From: a virus
Lineage: Duplodnaviria; Caudoviricetes
DNA length: 24,251 bases
IMG/VR virus record: IMGVR_UViG_3300048578_000401
Coordinates: 1-24,251 of that record
Reading direction: 5' to 3' (one strand)
Under the pieces are notes generated by a model. That model was not told the DNA's origin, made no database searches, and saw only the letters and a list, made by a program, of their open reading frames with translations. Made by a program: the position numbers and the translations under genes. Every line of letters begins with the position of its first letter. The stretch's first letter is position 1. Of this stretch, positions 11,995-21,826 are shown in pieces.

Positions 11995-12747
11995 ATGCTG
12001 AGATTTGGCCATTTAGGCACGATTGATCCGATGCTTGCGGAACGGCGGGCCTCTAAACTACCCAAAACGGGACAGACGACGAGTTATCGCACGGGCGATG
12101 ACGGCGTCGTCAAGGCTGGTAAGGATCATCGATTTACAGTCAAGGACAATCTCGTCGAAGACTGTGCAACCGGACTCTGCTGGGTGGCGAACCCGGCGGC
12201 GATTATTCCGGGGGATGCGAACGGTATTGCAGCTGTCGCCAAAGGCAATTGGAGTTCTATTCCTGATTACGTCTACGGCGATCTTGTTTACACTAACGCA
12301 GGCGATTTGAAGTATTATGTCTGTATCTCCCCTCACATCAATCAAGCCCCTCCCAATGCAACGTACTGGGTTGAGACGATCTGGACGGCCTCGGCAGTGA
12401 ATCTAGCTACACCTGTGACGGCGGATTGGAATAATGCGATAGACAAGTGCCTGGCTCTGAATTACGGCGGGATCGGCGGATGGTCGGCAAATAATCCGCT
12501 TGGCTGGCGGTTACCAAATGTTACAGAGCTTCGATCGTTGTGTGATCACAGCAAGGCGGCATATCCATCTATTGTATCACAGATACCACTTCCGTCTACG
12601 GCCGGATATGAATGCTGGTCGAGCACAACGCATTCATTGTCTACTGGTTCCGCGATGTGTGCGATGTATCAGTATGGTAATATCGTGGAATCTGTTGTTA
12701 AAACTGGTATAAAACAGGTACTTCCCGTCCGTAGTTTAATTGTGTAG
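11995..12747 (+). CDS. DUF1566 (Lcl C-terminal, C-type-lectin-like fold) protein with an inserted CBM5/12-like module
   Basis: LPKTGQTTSY..GDDG, V.D..TGL.W, W..A...C, GWRLPNVTELRSL, WSSTT...VLPVR; insert WSSIPDYVYGDLVY...YVCISPH....PPNATYW. Confidence 0.88.
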   Translation: MLRFGHLGTIDPMLAERRASKLPKTGQTTSYRTGDDGVVKAGKDHRFTVKDNLVEDCATGLCWVANPAAIIPGDANGIAAVAKGNWSSIPDYVYGDLVYTNAGDLKYYVCISPHINQAPPNATYWVETIWTASAVNLATPVTADWNNAIDKCLALNYGGIGGWSANNPLGWRLPNVTELRSLCDHSKAAYPSIVSQIPLPSTAGYECWSSTTHSLSTGSAMCAMYQYGNIVESVVKTGIKQVLPVRSLIV

Positions 12748-12751
12748 GATA

Positions 12752-12780
12752 TTGATAAAACTCTTGTAATTCGCTATATT
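12752..12780 (+). promoter_or_regulatory. Sigma70-like promoter for the PEP-CTERM gene
   Basis: TTGATA (12752-12757), 17-nt spacer, TATATT (12775-12780) in an AT-rich intergenic gap. Confidence 0.65.
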
Positions 12781-12818: not shown

Positions 12819-13880
12819 ATGAAGAATCTGATTTGTTGTGTGCTACTGGCCGTTGTGACAATCCTTGCTCCGCAATCGTATGGCATTATGGAATGGTACG
12901 ACATTAACACGGGAGTTGTAACGACCGTTTCGACGGACACGCCCGGCCTGTACAGTTATGTTGATGTGTCGGGCACGTGGATGACCTGGACGTCTCAGCC
13001 ACCAGCCGACGATAATGACAACTACGAGATTGTCGCTTGCGATCTGACGACAGGAATCACCTATAATCTTTCCAATGCTCCAGGGCAGCAGCGAGGCGGG
13101 GCGATCAGCGGAACGAAGGTAATCTGGACGGATAATACTCGATCGCCTGGTATCCACGGATATGACCTTTCAACGATGCAGCCATTTTATTATGGAATTT
13201 CAGACGCTTATGGTAACGACATGGCTATATCCGGCAATAAAGTCGCTTACGTTCGTGGCGTCTGGGGCGAATATTGCTCGCTGTCCGTGTTTAATTTAGA
13301 GTCGCAGACCAATCTTGACGTTGTAACCTATGACACCTGCAAGACAACGGGTTGGGCTATCGGCGGTAATTATGTTGCATGGTCTGAAAGGGTCTCAGAC
13401 TACTCTACAGAGAGTATTATTAAAGCCAAAAACATCGTCACCGGAACGATGTATGATTTGAGCAATCAGACATTTGGCGGCGGCGGAATCAGTACCGACG
13501 GAGAAAAGATTCTCTGGTGGGAATCGACGTTCAGTGGTCAGCATACGCTCAAGTCGTATGATGTTCTGCTGGGTCAGACCGACACGCTCTTTACGGGGTT
13601 ATATCAGCTCTGGGATGATACCGCGGACGTTGATAACGGCCGAGCGGTCTACACCTGGGCCGGGTCGATCTACATGTATGACTTTGCATCGGGCAATACT
13701 TCGCTCATTCGTGAGGCCTGGATGGACGCTGAGGGTACGATGATCAATTACACCTCTCCGCGGATCAGCGGGAATATCATCGTATGGGATCCTCCTCAAG
13801 GGACGGTTCCTGAGCCAGTGACGCTGGTATTGATGGGATTGGGTCTGTTGGGTGTTGTGCGCAGGGCGAGAAAGGTTTAA
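12819..13880 (+). CDS. Secreted beta-propeller-repeat protein with PEP-CTERM sorting signal
   Basis: N-terminal signal peptide; repeated (I/V)SGxxVxW...YDLxTG units; C-terminal VPEP + hydrophobic helix + RRARK. Confidence 0.92.
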   Translation: MKNLICCVLLAVVTILAPQSYGIMEWYDINTGVVTTVSTDTPGLYSYVDVSGTWMTWTSQPPADDNDNYEIVACDLTTGITYNLSNAPGQQRGGAISGTKVIWTDNTRSPGIHGYDLSTMQPFYYGISDAYGNDMAISGNKVAYVRGVWGEYCSLSVFNLESQTNLDVVTYDTCKTTGWAIGGNYVAWSERVSDYSTESIIKAKNIVTGTMYDLSNQTFGGGGISTDGEKILWWESTFSGQHTLKSYDVLLGQTDTLFTGLYQLWDDTADVDNGRAVYTWAGSIYMYDFASGNTSLIREAWMDAEGTMINYTSPRISGNIIVWDPPQGTVPEPVTLVLMGLGLLGVVRRARKV

Positions 13881-13908: not shown

Positions 13909-14070
13909 ATGGCGACAGACAAGGCCAGGCGGCTGGTTGATCAGCTCCTGAAGGACAATCCGACTTATACGGGCAAGCTCGTCCTGAACTTCCATAGTGG
14001 AGATCTTTCGGACAATGCCGCCGTTGAGCATTCGCTGAAGCTCAAAGATATTGGTGCCTCCAGGAACTGA
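13909..14070 (+). CDS. Small protein (53 aa), DUF2292/YezD-like
   Basis: Helix followed by YTGKLVLNFHSGDL...EHSLK, resembling the [FY]GxxxxxxHxGxx...ExxK beta-hairpin pattern; weak SD. Confidence 0.55.
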   Translation: MATDKARRLVDQLLKDNPTYTGKLVLNFHSGDLSDNAAVEHSLKLKDIGASRN

Positions 14071-14076
14071 TAAGAC

Positions 14077-14170
14077 TCTGACAACCGAATAACCCAACGG
14101 GACCACCGAAAATTCGAAGCCCGGCAATGTGACGCAGATGCGTTCGCATTGTCGGGCTTTTTATTTTTTT
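14077..14170 (+). terminator. Attenuator unit 1: conserved upstream motif overlapping an intrinsic terminator
   Basis: CAACGGGACCAC-CGAAAATTCG-AAGCCCGGC; stem 14117-14159 (AAGCCCGGCAATGTGA...TCGCATTGTCGGGCTT) then a long T tract. Confidence 0.85.
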
Positions 14171-14182
14171 ACGTCCGATCGA

Positions 14183-14330
14183 TCTGAAAACTCAATAGCA
14201 ACGGGACCAACGTAAACACGAAGCCCGGCGAAATCAGGCCTTAGGCCCTGGACCTTAGGCTTTGGGATTATCTCCCAGAGTCTAAAGACCAAAGTCTAAA
14301 GCCCGATTTCGTCGGGCTTTTTTTATTTTT
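14183..14330 (+). terminator. Attenuator unit 2: same motif overlapping a long intrinsic terminator hairpin
   Basis: CAACGGGACCAA-CGTAAACACG-AAGCCCGGC; stem AAGCCCGGCGAAATC (14221-14235) / GATTTCGTCGGGCTT (14305-14319) then a long T tract. Confidence 0.85.
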
Positions 14331-14349: not shown

Positions 14350-14610
14350 ATGGTAGCCGACATCAAATGTCCGAATCCTGAACGTCAGTGCCTGATCGAC
14401 CCGATCGATCTGACCGATCGCATGGCCCGCATGGAGACCAAGCTCGACCAGATCATCAAGGATCAGGATGAGGCCAAGAAGAACGTCTCGACGGGCATGT
14501 CCGGCAAGACGGTCGCGGGCTGGAGCATCCTCAATACCGGACTCCTCGTGGGGCTCTATGAAGGCCTTCGAGCCTATCTGGCCTCGAGAGGGATCCATTT
14601 CGGTCAATAG
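14350..14610 (+). CDS. Small membrane protein (coiled coil plus C-terminal TM; holin-like position)
   Basis: DRMARMETKLDQII followed by a hydrophobic segment; first gene after the terminators; GAGG SD. Confidence 0.65.
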   Translation: MVADIKCPNPERQCLIDPIDLTDRMARMETKLDQIIKDQDEAKKNVSTGMSGKTVAGWSILNTGLLVGLYEGLRAYLASRGIHFGQ

Positions 14611-14646
14611 TGTTTTCAACCTTTTTTATTTTATAGGAGATGGAAG

Positions 14647-15177
14647 ATGAAGAGTCGACTGATCACGCGAGTTACGTTGTTTGTGTTTGCCCTGCTGGGG
14701 TTGCCCGGATGCACCCAGCTCCAGAACCTGACCGATATCGGCACAGGCCTGCTGGGATTTGGTCGTATGACCGGCGATGGTGTCCGATCCATCATCGGAT
14801 GGTTTACGATGATGTCGGTTGCTTTCGCCCTGTTCGTTGGGGTGGGCGGTTGTTCTCAGGAATCCCGGCACAACATGGCCCGAGATGTCGTTTATGTGGC
14901 ATCGGCCCTGGATGATCTGGGGTATGAAGGTGAGATTAACGGGACGATTGACCCCTCCAGCTCGACAACGTTGGGAGCAGGAGGTCTTTCTCATGTCTCC
15001 AAGACTGTCGTCAATTTCAATGTCAAAAAGACCGGGCAAACCAAGGCCAAGGACAAGTTGCTGTGTCCCTGGCTGGCCGATCCGTATGCCAATACGCTCG
15101 ATAATGTGCCGATCACCGAACCCTCTGGCCCGATAGTCATGCCTGCCACGCAACCGGCAACGAAGGAGCCTGACTAA
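14647..15177 (+). CDS. Putative lipoprotein with two lipobox-like signal segments
   Basis: MKSR..LFVFALLGLPGC and internal FTMMSVAFALFVGVGGC; AGGAG SD. Confidence 0.7.
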   Translation: MKSRLITRVTLFVFALLGLPGCTQLQNLTDIGTGLLGFGRMTGDGVRSIIGWFTMMSVAFALFVGVGGCSQESRHNMARDVVYVASALDDLGYEGEINGTIDPSSSTTLGAGGLSHVSKTVVNFNVKKTGQTKAKDKLLCPWLADPYANTLDNVPITEPSGPIVMPATQPATKEPD

Positions 15178-15179
15178 CC

Positions 15180-15695
15180 ATGCAGACAAAAACCCTTTAC
15201 ATCATTTCCGGGGTTCTCCTGCTGACGATCGGCGCGTGTGTGAACACCAAAAAACTCACCGGCGCTGAGATCCTGCCCAGGGAACAATCTGGCAAGGTGA
15301 TTCAGGATCAGCATGCGGGTGGCAATCTGACCAACACCACGATTAATGTCGTGGGTGATGATGTCCTTCTCGCCGGGGCTGCAATCGGCGGCTTGATGGC
15401 GTTTGGCTGGTGGTACGCCGCTCATGGCCGAAAGATCCAGTCAACGGCCGTCTCGGAGATCGTCAAGGGGATAGAGATGAGCAAGCGAACGCTCAAACGC
15501 GAACTAGATAGTCCGCCACCTGTCAGGGGCGATGAGCCGGATGACGCTCCGGTTAAATGTCGTGTCAAGGATGTCCTGACCTGGATGAAGGTCTCGAACA
15601 ACTTCCATCAAACCGAAAGAACGCGGGCCATTGTCCGCAAGCTCCGCGGGAAACCCAAGAAGGAAACGACTGATGGCGAAACGAACGAAATATGA
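15180..15695 (+). CDS. Putative lipoprotein with internal transmembrane helix (possible spanin-like lysis protein)
   Basis: Lipobox IGAC at about residue 20; second hydrophobic segment VLLAGAAIGGLMAFGWWYAA; basic C-terminus. Confidence 0.65.
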   Translation: MQTKTLYIISGVLLLTIGACVNTKKLTGAEILPREQSGKVIQDQHAGGNLTNTTINVVGDDVLLAGAAIGGLMAFGWWYAAHGRKIQSTAVSEIVKGIEMSKRTLKRELDSPPPVRGDEPDDAPVKCRVKDVLTWMKVSNNFHQTERTRAIVRKLRGKPKKETTDGETNEI

Positions 15696-16182
15696 ACCGC
15701 TGTTTACCCAGATTGCTGAGGAGCTCACAGCCCTGTACGGCTGGCGACCCGGCGAGCTGGCCGCGGTGTTTCGTGTCGATGCCGATTCGGTCCAGGCCTG
15801 GCGAGAGAAGCGGGCCAACTTCAAAGAGGCGATCGAGCGAGGGCTTGAGCGATTTGACAAGGTGCGATCGGACCCCGAGCGGACCCGCAACGTCGAGGAA
15901 GAGCTCTACCGCCGGGCGGTGGGCTATGACTATGTCGAGGAAAAGGTCTCGATCGGACCCAAGGGAAAGACCGTCACGACGACCAAGTATCACCTGTCCG
16001 GGGATGTGGGAGCCCAGCGGACCTGGCTGCATAACCGCGACAAGGGACGGTGGCCCGAGAAGGTCGCCGAGGAAACCGGCGGCGACAAGACCGAAAACAA
16101 CGACTTTTTCATCGTCCTGGATGCCAATGCGATGGCCGGGAAGTTGAAGGATCAAAAGAAGAAAGAAGACAAAGCCGAGTGA
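15673..16182 (+). CDS. terS: Terminase small subunit
   Basis: R.TKY, N-terminal HTH, VEEELYRRAVGYDY, DVGA...WL.NR...W motifs; directly upstream of TerL; start moved to ATG 15673. Confidence 0.9.
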   Translation: MAKRTKYEPLFTQIAEELTALYGWRPGELAAVFRVDADSVQAWREKRANFKEAIERGLERFDKVRSDPERTRNVEEELYRRAVGYDYVEEKVSIGPKGKTVTTTKYHLSGDVGAQRTWLHNRDKGRWPEKVAEETGGDKTENNDFFIVLDANAMAGKLKDQKKKEDKAE

Positions 16183-17600
16183 TCGCTAACGCCGTAGACA
16201 TTCCGACGACCGCCAGACGCCTGGAGCTCCATGAGCGGCAGACGATCGCCTGGTCTACGCTCGATATGCCCAACGTGCGAGAGCTGCTCTATGGCGGGGC
16301 CAAGGGCGGTGGCAAGTCGGTCTTCCTGTGCGCCTGGTGCTTTGCCGAGGCCAAGCGGCTCATCCGCGAAAACAACCTCAAGCCCACCAAAAACCCGATC
16401 CCGGTCGGATGGATGGGACGCGTCCAGGGCAGCGACTTTATGACAACGACCCTCGAGACCTGGAAGGCCATCATCCCCGAGGACAAATACCGCATCAAAC
16501 ATTATTCGGGCACCTCCGGCGAGATCGTCATCGACGAGTGCGTCAAGATCGTCTTTTCAGGGTTGGACAACACCTCCAAGGTGAAAAAGTTCAACTCGGC
16601 CGAGTTCGTCTTTTTTGCCCTGGATCAGGCCGAAGAGGCGACCCAGGACCAGATCGGCGAGCTCCGAGGATCCCTGCGAAGGAAGATCAACGGCAAGGAT
16701 CAATGGTACCGGGCCCTCTTTACCGCCAATCCCCGGCAATGCTACCTGAAAGAAGAATTCATTGTATCCCCGATGCCGGAACGGCGATTCGTCCAGGCGT
16801 TGCCGTCGGATAATCCGCACGTCGCCGCCAACTACATCGAAACCCTGACCGCGGCTTTCCGACATCGTCCCGAGCTGCTCGAGGCCTACCTCCATGGCTC
16901 CTGGGATGCATTTGCAGATGATGATCAGATCATCCGCGATATGTGGATTCGGTCGGCCATGGCCCGACAGCTCTTTACCCCGGTCGAAAAACGATACCTC
17001 TCGGTAGATCCGGCGAGGTTCGGTAACGATGAGGCCGTTGTGCTGTCGTTTACGAATACCGACGTCGAAAAGGCCGAATGCCATCATAAACTCGATGCCG
17101 ACGCCCTGGCCACGAAGGTCCATCTGCGAGCGATCGCACACAAGGCCAGTGTTGTGGGGATCGATGAGATCGGCCTGGGCGGCCCTGTGGGCGATATCCT
17201 GGTGGCCCTGGCTGATGGTGCCTATGAGGTCATGTTCATCAATGGCTCCAATGCATCGAGCAAGCCCAAGATCTACGGCAATCTCAGAGCGGAAATCTGG
17301 GATACCGCCGCACAGATGCTGGCCACCGGCCAGGTCGTTTTGACCTGGGACGATGTGACCCTGCGGACGGAGCTCTGCACTCCCAAATACAGCTTTAAAC
17401 GCGGCCTGATGTACGTCCAGGACAAGGATGAAATCCGAGAGATCCTGGGCCACTCACCCGACCGCGGTGATAGCTACACCCAGGGACTCTGGATGTACGA
17501 GCGCGTGCCCAATGCGGCGGCTCACCCCGATCGGTACCGCAAGGAAAAAGGTGGCTATCGACGCCGCCTGCGAAATTCCGTTGGGGCTATGTCAGCTTAG
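16179..17600 (+). CDS. terL: Terminase large subunit
   Basis: Walker A YGGAKGGGKS, Walker B-like FFALDQAEE, coupling motif TANP, DNPH, nuclease VDPARFGND, IDEIGLG, SPDRGDS; GTG start overlapping the terS stop. Confidence 0.96.
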   Translation: MIANAVDIPTTARRLELHERQTIAWSTLDMPNVRELLYGGAKGGGKSVFLCAWCFAEAKRLIRENNLKPTKNPIPVGWMGRVQGSDFMTTTLETWKAIIPEDKYRIKHYSGTSGEIVIDECVKIVFSGLDNTSKVKKFNSAEFVFFALDQAEEATQDQIGELRGSLRRKINGKDQWYRALFTANPRQCYLKEEFIVSPMPERRFVQALPSDNPHVAANYIETLTAAFRHRPELLEAYLHGSWDAFADDDQIIRDMWIRSAMARQLFTPVEKRYLSVDPARFGNDEAVVLSFTNTDVEKAECHHKLDADALATKVHLRAIAHKASVVGIDEIGLGGPVGDILVALADGAYEVMFINGSNASSKPKIYGNLRAEIWDTAAQMLATGQVVLTWDDVTLRTELCTPKYSFKRGLMYVQDKDEIREILGHSPDRGDSYTQGLWMYERVPNAAAHPDRYRKEKGGYRRRLRNSVGAMSA

Positions 17601-17623
17601 AACCTTTTAGAGAGAGGAAATCC

Positions 17624-17878
17624 ATGTCAACGAAAAAGAAATCGAAACCGGCCCAGCCGACCGCTGGTGATGCGGAAACCCAAGCAGGGCCAGTAGAGGC
17701 CCAGGGCCTTATTCCCGATCGCAAACGTCCCTGGTTGGCCTGGGACGTCCAGCGAAACGAGCAGGAGAAGCGGAAAGCCGCCCTCGAGGCCAAGAAGAAA
17801 GAAGAAGCGAAAAAGTCCATCCTTTCGCCAGCGTTCGCGAAGAATCCGAACCTGGCCTGGGATCTGAAAAAGAGGTAA
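17624..17878 (+). CDS. Hypothetical basic protein with duplicated PxLAWD motif
   Basis: GAGG SD; PWLAWDV and PNLAWDL; fills the TerL-portal gap. Confidence 0.7.
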   Translation: MSTKKKSKPAQPTAGDAETQAGPVEAQGLIPDRKRPWLAWDVQRNEQEKRKAALEAKKKEEAKKSILSPAFAKNPNLAWDLKKR

Positions 17879-17881
17879 GTA

Positions 17882-19669
17882 ATGGTGACTGAAAACGACA
17901 GACTGGTGATGGTCAAAGATTTCTGGGACAACTCGAAATCGGAGAACCGCAACTGGATGGAACGGGCGAAGCTCGGCCGCCAGATGTGGTTCGGCAATCA
18001 ATGGGACGCCGACGATATGTCCTACCTGAAGGACAGCGGACGCCCGGCGCTGACGATCAACCGGATACTGCCCGTCATCAATGTATTATCGGGTACCCAG
18101 AGACAGAACCGAACCGATTTTCGGTGCTACCCCAGACGCGGTGGCCTGGCGGTCATCGCCCAGATTCTGACGGCGATGCTCAAGCACACGATGGACACCT
18201 CCAATGGTGACTGGGAGCTCTCCGACTGCTTCCTGGATGGTGTGATCGACGGCAAGGGGTGGATGGGGATCGATATCGATTATCTTTATGACCCGATCCA
18301 GGGCGATCTGGTGATCCAGAAGGAAAACCCCTTCGGCATCCTGGAAGACAGATCGGCCGTCGAGTACGACCTGAACAAGTCTGCCAAATTCATCATCAAG
18401 ACCTATTTCCGGGACAAAGATGAGCTGTCCCTGATGTACCCGCGAAAGAAAAAGGACCTGATGGGGGGAGGCCTGGAAAAAGAGGCCCATGAACGGCCGG
18501 ACATTGATGAGGACCCCGATGATGTCCTCCTCCAGGAGGACATGGTCAACCACAAGTACCGATTCCGCGTGAAAGAGTGCTGGTGGAAGTCTTACGACAA
18601 GATCTGGTACCTGGTGGATAAATCCGATCTCCAGGTGCGACGGATTCCAGCGAACAAGAAAACCATCGCCGAGCAGCTGATCCTGGGACACCCCGAGCAG
18701 TTTAGCCTGGTAAGCCGGATCGCACCGACGATGCACCTGACGACGACGTGCGGCGAGGTCGTCCTGGAGGACATCGTCAATCCTTTGGGCGATCTGGTGA
18801 TGTTCCCCTTCATCCGGTTTTGTCCGTACCACGTCGATGGCAACATCATGGGGGCGGTCGATAACCTGGTGGATGCCCAGCGGGAATACAACAAACGCCG
18901 ATCGCAGATGCTTCATCACCTCAATCAGACGGCCAACTCCGGCTGGATCGGTGACAATAACGCACTGACACCCTCCGGCTGGGAAGACCTGGAAGACTTT
19001 GGGGCCCTGCCCGGCAAGATCATCAAGAAAACCCCAGGCTCAGAACTGCGAAAGATGGAACCGAGTCCGATCTCCCAGGGGCATATGGACCTGGCCAATA
19101 TCTCCGGGACTGAGATCAAAGAGATATCCGGTGTGAATGCGGACATGATGGGCCATCAGTCCGAGGCTCAAAAGAGCGGCCGGGCAATGGAGATCCGCAA
19201 CCGCCAGGGGATGCTCGTCTCTGAGATCATTTTCGATAACTTTTCACGGACCGAACAGATCTTCGGGACCACGCTCACCGAAATGCTTCGGACCAGCGAT
19301 GGCACGCACATGTCTCGCATCTACTCGAACGAAGAGATTCGGGCGATCTGCGATGAGGCCAACCTGAATGTGGACCTGGAACAGATCCACAACTTCGCCA
19401 CCGGCCGGTACGGCATCAAGGTGGAGCAATCCAAGCATTTACCGACGGCTCGCATGAATCAACGCAATGAGCTGCTCGATCTGCGAGACCAAGGCGTCGA
19501 GATCAGCCCGATCCACATCCTGGAGCTCTCGGACAATCCCAAGAAGGATGAGATCATCGCCGACCTTCGACAGAAGGAAGAAATGCAACAGGCGATGATG
19601 CAGCAGCAGGCCCAGGCACAAGCCCTGGCTGCGGCTGCCGGTGCCGCACCAAAGGTGCCTCCCAAGTAA
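17882..19669 (+). CDS. Portal protein (P22/N4-like podoviral type)
   Basis: GNQW...GRPALTINRI.P.I..LSG, FPFI.F, G.V..L.DAQREYNKRRS, SGRAM..R..QG; Gln-rich C-terminal helix; position after TerL. Confidence 0.93.
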   Translation: MVTENDRLVMVKDFWDNSKSENRNWMERAKLGRQMWFGNQWDADDMSYLKDSGRPALTINRILPVINVLSGTQRQNRTDFRCYPRRGGLAVIAQILTAMLKHTMDTSNGDWELSDCFLDGVIDGKGWMGIDIDYLYDPIQGDLVIQKENPFGILEDRSAVEYDLNKSAKFIIKTYFRDKDELSLMYPRKKKDLMGGGLEKEAHERPDIDEDPDDVLLQEDMVNHKYRFRVKECWWKSYDKIWYLVDKSDLQVRRIPANKKTIAEQLILGHPEQFSLVSRIAPTMHLTTTCGEVVLEDIVNPLGDLVMFPFIRFCPYHVDGNIMGAVDNLVDAQREYNKRRSQMLHHLNQTANSGWIGDNNALTPSGWEDLEDFGALPGKIIKKTPGSELRKMEPSPISQGHMDLANISGTEIKEISGVNADMMGHQSEAQKSGRAMEIRNRQGMLVSEIIFDNFSRTEQIFGTTLTEMLRTSDGTHMSRIYSNEEIRAICDEANLNVDLEQIHNFATGRYGIKVEQSKHLPTARMNQRNELLDLRDQGVEISPIHILELSDNPKKDEIIADLRQKEEMQQAMMQQQAQAQALAAAAGAAPKVPPK

Positions 19670-19675
19670 GAGTTT

Positions 19676-19765
19676 ATCCCCCCGCAAACCGACAGCGGGG
19701 TTTCGCTAAATAGTCGGGTTCCCTCCCCTGAAGGGTTTATCAGGGTAACCGGGCCCCTCCGGCCC
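19676..19765 (+). promoter_or_regulatory. Multi-hairpin leader upstream of the scaffold gene
   Basis: CCCCGC/GCGGGG, CCCTGA/TCAGGG and GGGCC/GGCCC stems between the portal stop and the scaffold SD. Confidence 0.45.
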
Positions 19766-19787
19766 AGACAACGAAGGAGTGTATGAG

Positions 19788-20627
19788 ATGAGTAAGAAAG
19801 AACTGCACGAGATGGACCAGGCTGAATTGGATGCAATGCTCGAACAGGAAGAACAGGGGCATGGCGACGATGCACCGCCGGCAGAAACCGATGATGAAAC
19901 GCCGCCGGAAAAAGAGGATGAGACTTCCGTTGAAACGGAAGAAGAAACTCCCCCCGACTCCCGCGACAAACGCGGCTTGATCAAGGATCTGCAATCCGAA
20001 AGAGCCCGTGCCCGTCTACTGCGGGAAGAGGCCGAGGCCCTGAGGCTCGAGCTTGATGCGATGAAACGCGGCAAGAAAGCGGAGTCTGAACCCGAACCTG
20101 AACCGGAACCCGTAGAAGATCCTGAGGAGCTTCTCACGCGGGCCGAGGTCAAGGCTCTTCTGGAGAAAGAACGTGCCGCACTCAAACAAGCGGACATCGA
20201 ACGCATGGCCAAGGCCAAAACGGAGAACGCCAAAAAGTGTGTGGCCAAGGCCGAGAAGGAACTGACGGCAGACAAGACAGGTGTGGGCCTGGATTACAAA
20301 ACCGTCGCGAACCTGGGCAAGGACTCACTCCGGAAGGGCGACTTTGAAGAGATTCAGGAATCCGAGGACCCGGCCAGAACGTTCTACGAGCTGTGCCTCC
20401 TGCGAAATCCTGAGCTGCGGAAACGTCAGCAGATCCGCGAACGCGAAAAGCTGCTGAAGGAAACCCGCGGCGGCGGCCGGGTCACGCTCCCCAAGGGTGG
20501 CAGTGGGTCCGGCAAAGCGGAATCGGTGTTGGAGGTGGTCACTGGCGGCGGCCAGGACCCGGAATACGAAAGCCTGCTCGGGAAGTCTCAGAAGGAGCTC
20601 CTGGAGATGCTGGGCGAAGATGAATAA
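19788..20627 (+). CDS. Capsid scaffolding protein
   Basis: Acidic low-complexity N-terminus and coiled coil (LQSERARAR), between portal and capsid; ATG 19788 follows AAGGAG. Confidence 0.82.
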   Translation: MSKKELHEMDQAELDAMLEQEEQGHGDDAPPAETDDETPPEKEDETSVETEEETPPDSRDKRGLIKDLQSERARARLLREEAEALRLELDAMKRGKKAESEPEPEPEPVEDPEELLTRAEVKALLEKERAALKQADIERMAKAKTENAKKCVAKAEKELTADKTGVGLDYKTVANLGKDSLRKGDFEEIQESEDPARTFYELCLLRNPELRKRQQIREREKLLKETRGGGRVTLPKGGSGSGKAESVLEVVTGGGQDPEYESLLGKSQKELLEMLGEDE

Positions 20628-20698
20628 CGGTCGGGCGTGTGCCTGATCACGAAATTTAATTTTGTCCTGACCAAGCGTCGGACAGAAAGGAACGAATC

Positions 20699-21826
20699 AT
20701 GGGTGATACAGTTTTCAAAAGTTCTGCTCCGCAGACGGTCAAAATCTGGTCCGCGATGCTTTTCAAGGAAACGCGGGGTCAGATCTTTTTCGGCAAGTTT
20801 GTGGGCAAGGATGACAAGTCCCTGATCCAGGAGAAAGTGGATCTGAGCAAAGAGCGAGGCGACAAGATCGGCTTTGATCTTCGCATGAAGCTCTCGGGCC
20901 GCGGACGGACGAACGACCAGACCCTCGAAGGACAGGAAGAGGAAATGGTCTTCAAGCATTTTGCAACTCAGGTCTTCCTGCGGCAAAATGGCGTCAAGGC
21001 TAAAGGCAAAATGACCCTGCGTCGGACCAAGCACGACATCAAAGTCGAAGGTCGTGATGCCCTCGCCGACTGGATGGCCGAGATGATCGACGATGACACG
21101 GTGTTGGCCCTGTCCGGCTTGGAAAATCCGAGTCTGATCGACGATGACGATGTTGTGGTGCCGGCTGTGCCCCCATCCGCTAACCGCATCCTCTACGGCG
21201 GTGTCTCTCCGGCGGGTGTCGTGGGCATGGTGGCCAGCGACAGCCTGATCGCCAATACGAGCCACGCCCATTTGTTTGGGCCCAAGCTCCTGGAGATCCT
21301 CAAGCGCAAGGCCCAGCTCGTGCGGCCCAAGATCCGGCCGGTGAAGGTCAACGGCAAGGAGTATTATGTCTGTTTCATCCACCCGCTCCAGGCCAAGGCG
21401 TTGACCGCCTCGGAAGAGTGGCTGGCTGATCAGCGGAATGCGAACGTCCGCGGGACCGATAACCCGATCTTCTCGGGAATGCTCGGCATCTATAAGGGCG
21501 TCGTGGTCCACGAATACGAGCGGATTATGACCCGACTCGGCGAAGCGGGCAACGGGACCGGCTCTTACTTCGACATCCGAAGTAATACCGAGGACAATCT
21601 CCCGACGGGCGTGATGGCCGCTCGGGCGCTGTTCTGCGGGGCTCAGGCGGGTGTGCATTGCTACGCCCAGTACCCTGGCTGGTACGAGAAGGACTTCGAC
21701 TACAACCGAGTCCCTGGTGTGGCGACGGATGTGATCTATCGGGCCGACAAGACCCGGTTCACGCTCGACGGCGTCAGCGAGGACTTTGCGGTGATCTGCA
21801 TGGATACCGCGGTTGAAGAAGACTAG
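20699..21826 (+). CDS. Major capsid protein (N4-gp56 / DUF4043-like)
   Basis: VKIWS..LF.E, DLSKERGDKI.F.L...LSG.G, LEG.EE, IHP.Q...L, NPIFSG.LG.Y.GVVVHE, RALFCGAQA. Confidence 0.93.
   Translation: MGDTVFKSSAPQTVKIWSAMLFKETRGQIFFGKFVGKDDKSLIQEKVDLSKERGDKIGFDLRMKLSGRGRTNDQTLEGQEEEMVFKHFATQVFLRQNGVKAKGKMTLRRTKHDIKVEGRDALADWMAEMIDDDTVLALSGLENPSLIDDDDVVVPAVPPSANRILYGGVSPAGVVGMVASDSLIANTSHAHLFGPKLLEILKRKAQLVRPKIRPVKVNGKEYYVCFIHPLQAKALTASEEWLADQRNANVRGTDNPIFSGMLGIYKGVVVHEYERIMTRLGEAGNGTGSYFDIRSNTEDNLPTGVMAARALFCGAQAGVHCYAQYPGWYEKDFDYNRVPGVATDVIYRADKTRFTLDGVSEDFAVICMDTAVEED

Follow-up and report, generated by a model that had tools for sequence, protein, structure and literature searches.

Genes around a 53-residue reading frame

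The window, which is the whole stretch of 24,251 bases analysed here, is a virus record of the provirus class that is 28% complete. Its left half contains mostly replication- and methylase-type genes, and positions 591–1265 encode a 224-residue phage protein with a match to the RyR domain (PF02026, E 2e-8). At the boundary of early and late genes lies moron-like cargo, namely a gene with an Lcl C-terminal domain and, beyond an AT-rich promoter-like gap, a PEP-CTERM secreted-protein gene. The PEP-CTERM gene lies directly 5′ of an open reading frame (ORF) of 53 residues. The ORF is followed by a gap of 279 bases containing two RNA units, here called gates 1 and 2, and then by three genes of 86, 176 and 171 residues with hydrophobic stretches and, in one case, a lipoprotein-like N terminus. 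Further downstream lie the large terminase, portal and major capsid genes, and the 282-residue ORF at the scaffold position between the latter two matches no family. All genes from the 53-residue ORF to the capsid gene are on the same strand (Table 1). The initial annotation had placed the gates between early genes and a lysis and packaging operon; the packaging genes are supported by family matches, whereas no lysis family was matched downstream. The promoter-like site before the PEP-CTERM gene is the best upstream candidate for the promoter of a transcript reaching the 53-residue gene and both gates, and the feature listing contains no plus-strand terminator-like site between it and position 14117.

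Table 1. Positions of genes and predicted RNA features in the window
Feature	Position	Strand	Remarks
Lcl C-terminal domain gene	11995–12747		
Promoter-like site	12752–12780	+	consensus match only, 10/12
PEP-CTERM secreted protein gene	12819–13880	+	beta-propeller-like; Pfam PF07589, E 4e-6; TIGR02595 above its cut-off
53-residue ORF	13909–14070	+	candidate RNA-binding antiterminator
Gate 1, antiterminator-like fold	14098–14123	+	4-bp stem, ACCAC/AAG internal loop, 3-bp hairpin, AAAU loop
Gate 1, predicted intrinsic terminator	14117–14170	+	5′ arm AAGCCCG common to antiterminator fold
Gate 2, antiterminator-like fold	14202–14227	+	apical pair compensated relative to gate 1
Gate 2, predicted terminator	14221–14330	+	47-nt arms, internal 14-nt repeats
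First three downstream genes (86, 176, 171 residues)	14350–15695	+	no convincing family match
Large terminase, P22-like portal, 282-residue ORF, major capsid	16050–21826	+	PHROGs 2, 156, 334; Pfam PF16510, PF13252

Two RNA units and their overlapping predicted terminators

The RNA cores at positions 14095–14125 and 14199–14229 are identical at 27 of 31 bases. The next best match to the core within the window reaches 19 of 31, and no score above 22 arises when the window is shuffled 300 times, so the tandem repeat with a spacing of 104 nt, as initially annotated, is borne out. The repeated unit had been drawn more widely. Its core recurs at 104 nt, whereas the 5′ extension TCTGA...AATA recurs at 106 nt and requires a 2-nt gap; the extension is not conserved in relatives. 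Each unit folds alone into a 26-nt core made of a 4-bp stem, a 5 × 3 internal loop and a 3-bp hairpin. The CGGG/CCCG stems are formed by 14098–14101 with 14120–14123 and by 14202–14205 with 14224–14227, as had been proposed, and the apical hairpins covary between unit 1 (CGA-AAAT-TCG) and unit 2 (CGT-AAAC-ACG). The fold is the minimum free energy structure of the short RNA in both units (−7.6 kcal/mol), with a stability no better than that of shuffled sequences (z −0.6 and −0.2). A search with the RNA model revealed no third site anywhere in the window.

The fold is not catalogued in Rfam: the window has no match at the gathering score and no relevant one at E ≤ 10, and 11 related and comparison loci have none at E ≤ 1. 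Sub-gathering matches to microRNA families were rejected because they reflect the long hairpin only. The Moco-II RNA motif (RF01713) resembles the window fold in being a small cis-regulatory hairpin with internal loops, described from Proteobacteria (PMC2864571). However, its alignment rows lack the GACCA/AAG loop, and with no Rfam match in the window or the 11 loci, Moco-II was rejected.

The RNAs that include the terminators are strongly folded (−39 and −65.4 kcal/mol; z −6.2 and −7.5), with T tracts at 14158–14162 and 14164–14170 in gate 1 and at 14318–14324 and 14326–14330 in gate 2. The mutual exclusion of antiterminator and terminator through the shared AAGCCCG, claimed in the initial annotation, is upheld by the computed folds and by the overlap kept in relatives. 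Imposing the antiterminator on the full RNA costs 11.9 kcal/mol in unit 1 and 11.6 kcal/mol in unit 2; at equilibrium, once the downstream sequence is present, AAGCCCG goes to the terminator, which is favoured by about 12 kcal/mol. When the RNA is folded stepwise at equilibrium, the antiterminator pair of unit 1 stays above 0.9 until the 3′ arm of the terminator is made, and that of unit 2 dips transiently to about 0.3 at 14267–14275.

Gate 2 contains a third AAGCCCG at 14299–14305, previously overlooked, which is able to close a short terminator alone. Alongside the antiterminator, this inner terminator can form at −50.4 kcal/mol, 3.4 kcal/mol above the read-through fold at −53.8 kcal/mol. 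Therefore, gate 2 may not open fully, and the inner terminator may make it tighter. Within the long arm of terminator 2 (14228–14311), two pairs of 14-nt direct repeats face each other, as if the arm had grown through local duplication. The arm also contains GACCA-N7-AAGCCCG at 14287–14305, which resembles a degenerate third unit without an outer stem.

Further copies of the fold and a linked protein family

A search of 21 sources with an RNA model built on four copies gave 13 copies in total, two in the window and 11 in phages and Nitrospiria. In their alignment, 96.7% of 90 cells are paired and six of seven pairs are changed on both sides, compared with none of 500 shuffles pairing as highly and 32–42% in slid controls; these values are inflated, since pairing was the criterion for choosing the viral rows, the rows were aligned to fit the structure and six of the 13 are near-identical Nitrospiria copies. 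Among the copies, the apical stem occurs in five versions and the outer stem in three, while the loop letters stay GACCA and A[A/C]G. All 13 overlap their own terminators through the same bases. Where the loop reads ACG, as in most Nitrospiria copies, the far terminator arm reads CGT or TGT, which indicates that the overlap itself is conserved. The initial annotation had named a lack of conservation in other genomes as evidence against the motif; the fold and its terminator overlap are kept in the 11 further copies. The conserved regulatory element is real.

A full scan of viral sequences for the pattern yielded 100 loci, 77 of them distinct, and four of these are structured, with three of three apical pairs, at least two of three further outer pairs and a terminator. 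Matches to the exact motif are mostly due to chance: one viral match lies inside a gene, and in a further viral scan one of 45 matches has a terminator. A tighter viral pattern gave no matches, none of 33 metagenome matches combines the 3-bp hairpin with a terminator, and a loose pattern occurred at control level in 301 Nitrospirota genomes. By eye, one of 15 genome matches was judged real, a fold between a heavy-metal-binding-like gene and apbE on a Nitrospiria chromosome (L089), and most of the others resemble ends of genes or tRNAs preceding ordinary terminators.

The 53-residue protein has no match in Pfam (E ≤ 0.01 or ≤ 10), PHROGs or NCBIfam. A profile search of 1.84 billion proteins gave six matches, three of which are short relatives, and an alignment search added a fourth relative. 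Phage database searches gave nothing useful, and searches for related loci found no relatives of the protein or of the terminase. In the family alignment of 20 sequences, G22, N27 and G31 are invariant. The protein has a predicted N-terminal helix. Its charge is nearly neutral (8 K/R, 7 D/E) and its structure models are weak (pLDDT 68 and 72, pTM 0.4), so the models lend no support to an RNA-binding surface, which counts against RNA binding by the protein. Fold searches with the models found no match.

The label "DUF2292-like" given initially is unproven. Neither the protein, its four relatives nor the virus record matches PF10055 at the cut-off, and alignment of the family profile to DUF2292 by hhalign is not significant (probabilities 0.3, 0.8 and 1.1; E 0.23, 0.07 and 0.049). 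Atlas scores of 0.78 and 0.81 to clusters with 25% and 11% DUF2292 members are leads only. The low-confidence monomer models contain no strands (best Z 3.1), and a search of solved structures with the DUF2292 profile gave no match under E 0.36. The gene arrangements are alike. In 151 Nitrospirota genomes, a hairpin follows the canonical PF10055 gene at 15 of 15 loci, twice at eight of them, and several of these hairpins overlap a terminator. As in the window, a tiny gene precedes a hairpin with a GACC...AG-type internal loop, and the protein cores align on G-x-hydrophobic-x-hydrophobic-x-hydrophobic-H. However, the canonical hairpin closes CCAG/CUGG over a tetraloop, whereas the window folds leave CCA unpaired and are topped by a separate hairpin; the window-type RNA model found nothing in the nine canonical loci searched (of 15). 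The 53-residue family and DUF2292 are treated here as probable distant branches. In one group of Nitrospirota loci (L128–L135), a pair of hairpins spaced by about 54 nt lies downstream of the canonical DUF2292 gene, and the second hairpin seems to run into a stem over the next ribosome-binding site, hinting at translational control.

The linkage of the RNA to the protein family, which the initial annotation had made a point of decision, is seen in other genomes in both directions, from RNA to protein and from protein to RNA. A profile (A4) of the window protein and its four relatives, containing no RNA-selected sequence, was run against 8,656 segments of 223 viral loci, about 60 of which had flanks of just about 300 bases and thus provide a shallower control. 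Matches with E < 0.001 occurred only in loci of three of the four structured phages, and the next best match had E 0.12. The gene orders are terminase, protein, RNA and portal in L325; portal, ORF, protein, RNA, scaffold-like gene and capsid in L264; and portal, ORFs, protein, two ORFs, RNA and scaffold-like gene in L365, where the protein gene is about 560 nt from the RNA. In L399, as read from the printed sequence, the RNA lies directly before the portal gene. In L035, the fourth structured phage, the apical stem is GAG/CTC, and the fold and its terminator precede a long ORF that was taken by eye for a capsid protease or scaffold; the small ORF of this phage is a different one, with no family-profile match and a faint DUF2292-profile match. 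L325 also contains TTGACA followed by an AT-rich stretch at 1800–1845, between the terminase and the small gene, which is a possible dedicated promoter.

Among 201 genomes of the class Nitrospiria, the family profile found eight genes in seven genomes. The fold lies within 35 nt downstream of three of the eight genes, and in four genomes the RNA is 0.8–1.3 kb away, at up to several genes' distance. When all 201 genomes were searched with a pattern, six of the seven carriers and 10 of the 194 others gave matches. By one and the same test, the fold with an overlapping terminator is present in six of seven carriers and in none of the 194 other genomes; the carriers form one clade, approximately one event, and were chosen since one member held the RNA. 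The 3-bp hairpin and overlapping terminator are present at seven of seven sites in carriers and at none of the 10 matches in other genomes. The seventh carrier has a loop variant found solely by a targeted search with the RNA model, which was not applied to the 194 negatives. The chromosomal cluster with protein and RNA gate (L367–L374, L385–L391) also encodes a ResA-like thioredoxin, His-rich small proteins, a heavy-metal-binding-like protein, ApbE and a likely outer-membrane receptor.

Searches of 168 genomes from the phylum of G425 and of five single genomes gave no member of the family. In 301 genomes of the phylum of G426, there were nine weak profile matches in eight genomes, one of which, in a long ORF, was dropped. 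At three of the remaining eight loci, a loose core, GG(G/T)ACC...A(A/C/T)G(C/T)CC, is present with an overlapping terminator within 450 nt, compared with none of 920 control stretches, the pattern having been drawn after seeing the loci. Two more loci have a similar core by eye. One phage locus has a 6-bp apical hairpin; others, without an apical hairpin, lie ahead of genes for secreted proteins, one of which matches VPLPA-CTERM above the cut-off, and L397 has two cores 200 nt apart. The stem with its ACC/AG loop is the constant part and thus the place where a ligand would be expected to bind. At L394, L396, L397 and L402, distant relatives precede genes with PEP-CTERM-like signals, with the minimal core and terminator in between. 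The PEP-CTERM gene just upstream of the 53-residue gene in the window may point to the source from which the phage obtained the module.

Proposed mechanism and its alternatives

With moderate confidence, we favour the reading that the 53-residue protein is a stand-alone RNA-binding antiterminator that works in a manner similar to BglG and LicT on RAT, and forms a separate subtype beside the DUF2292/YezD hairpin system. The reading is favoured because of the covariation, the kept loop letters, the terminator overlap and the co-occurrence with the protein family. It is weakened by L035, one of the four structured phages, which lacks a family protein, and by the distant-protein loci, only three of eight of which pass a loose, after-the-fact RNA test. 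The genomic case for a partner protein is good, and the 53-residue protein is the likely ligand of the fold. It would bind the ACCA/AAG internal loop of each nascent RNA and hold the fold long enough to keep the overlapping terminator from closing, so that transcription would pass two gates in series to the packaging and capsid genes. The RNA sites at 0.56–1.3 kb from the protein gene suggest action in trans. Two gates in series would lower the leak and sharpen the response to the level of the protein. The initial annotation had proposed positive feedback; however, both gates come after the 53-residue gene, no site before it was found with the RNA model, and the predicted logic is therefore a threshold or delay. 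As a late-gene switch, the element fits the phage copies preceding portal and scaffold-like genes, but the bacterial copies lie in redox/metal-related and PEP-CTERM-type loci.

A close parallel is provided by BglG, SacY and LicT. Their RAT hairpin is about 30 nt long, partly overlaps an intrinsic terminator and forms first, and the RNA-binding domain of LicT has 55 residues, close to the size of the whole window protein (PMC12591593; PMC5393181). The window fold is likewise short and, as computed, overlaps and excludes an intrinsic terminator. The balance of about 12 kcal/mol between a weak fold and a strong terminator fits the kinetic capture outlined for LicT and RAT (PMC5393181), and local, protein-stabilised antitermination by such capture would be the simplest account. 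In contrast, BglG, SacY and LicT combine a CAT RNA-binding domain with two PRD domains and control sugar operons, whereas the window protein stands alone, has no CAT or PRD match and no phosphorylation domains, begins with a predicted helix and would target phage morphogenesis genes. Rfam gives no RAT match in the window at the gathering score or at E ≤ 10.

In phage lambda, the terminators before the late genes are overcome by small phage proteins in the Q/tR′ and N/nut systems; the loading site of Q is in the DNA next to the promoter, and N acts processively with Nus factors. The window also has predicted terminators ahead of late genes and a candidate small phage protein. The fold could load the protein onto RNA polymerase, as in lambda N/nut or conAn logic, and many terminators would then be read through. 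The element does open long phage morphogenesis operons, and no Q or N family was matched among the 38 window ORFs scanned, in a record that is 28% complete. Nevertheless, we regard processive antitermination as unlikely: all 13 copies overlap their own terminator, and each window terminator has its own competing fold, which a processive factor would not need. Moreover, conAn-type processive antitermination is resisted by long stems (PMC10325885), and the arms of gate 2 are 47 nt long.

A metabolite, an ion or a host protein might instead stabilise the fold in a riboswitch-like manner, with the small gene as a co-inherited passenger or regulated output. The conserved letters in the internal loop and the chromosomal copies that precede apbE near ResA-like and heavy-metal-binding genes are in line with this. 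We consider it very unlikely, because the targets are unrelated (portal, scaffold, apbE and VPLPA-CTERM proteins) and share the protein family as their common neighbour, no structured copy is present in the 194 Nitrospiria genomes without the protein, and the core has merely 26 nt. To the same low degree, we believe that the gates are fixed leaky attenuators setting gene dosage, or that the protein acts negatively, the extra fold just tuning the leak. The equilibrium advantage of the terminator and the unexceptional stability of the small fold speak for this, but under a fixed leak there would be no need for the loop letters to stay invariant while the stems are compensated in phages and bacteria alike, or for a link to a single protein family. 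Least probable is translation-coupled attenuation, in which a ribosome ending the small ORF 27 nt before gate 1 would set which fold forms; the fold does begin at most 35 nt from the stop codon in the window, L325, L264, L399 and three of eight Nitrospiria loci, but about 130 nt separate gate 2 from the ORF, the distance between gene and fold is about 560 nt, with two ORFs in between, in L365 and 0.8–1.3 kb in four Nitrospiria genomes, and the peptide is conserved as a protein.

The type of switch favoured here, local antitermination by an RNA-binding protein, is known, and this RNA and this protein are uncatalogued. No description of either was found in a literature search that had most subscription journals outside its reach, nor was a paper on the DUF2292/YezD and hairpin system, judged by titles or abstract openings. 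The words "phage", "YezD" and "DUF" are absent from the text of a 2025 review of RNA-binding antiterminators (PMC12591593). Going further, we speculate, at slightly less than even chances, that stand-alone RNA-binding antiterminators of 50–60 residues form a widespread undescribed class, with DUF2292/YezD as one branch, split into protein–RNA pairs of separate specificity. The loop read by all of them would be GACC...AG, on a stem that also serves as an arm of the terminator, and the apical part would be interchangeable (absent, 3 bp or 6 bp). One branch would replace Q or N in phages, timing the packaging and capsid genes, and would serve bacteria at redox/metal and PEP-CTERM loci.

Phages otherwise time their late genes by Q-type antitermination or by late sigma or activator factors. 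If the favoured reading is true, they would gain a third way, and a protein and RNA family would be added to the RNA-binding antiterminators. The sizes of the partners, 53 residues and 26 nt, suit direct work in vitro, and separate subtypes could act as switches that do not cross-react. The reading would also suggest what role is played by a family of tiny genes that often go unannotated.
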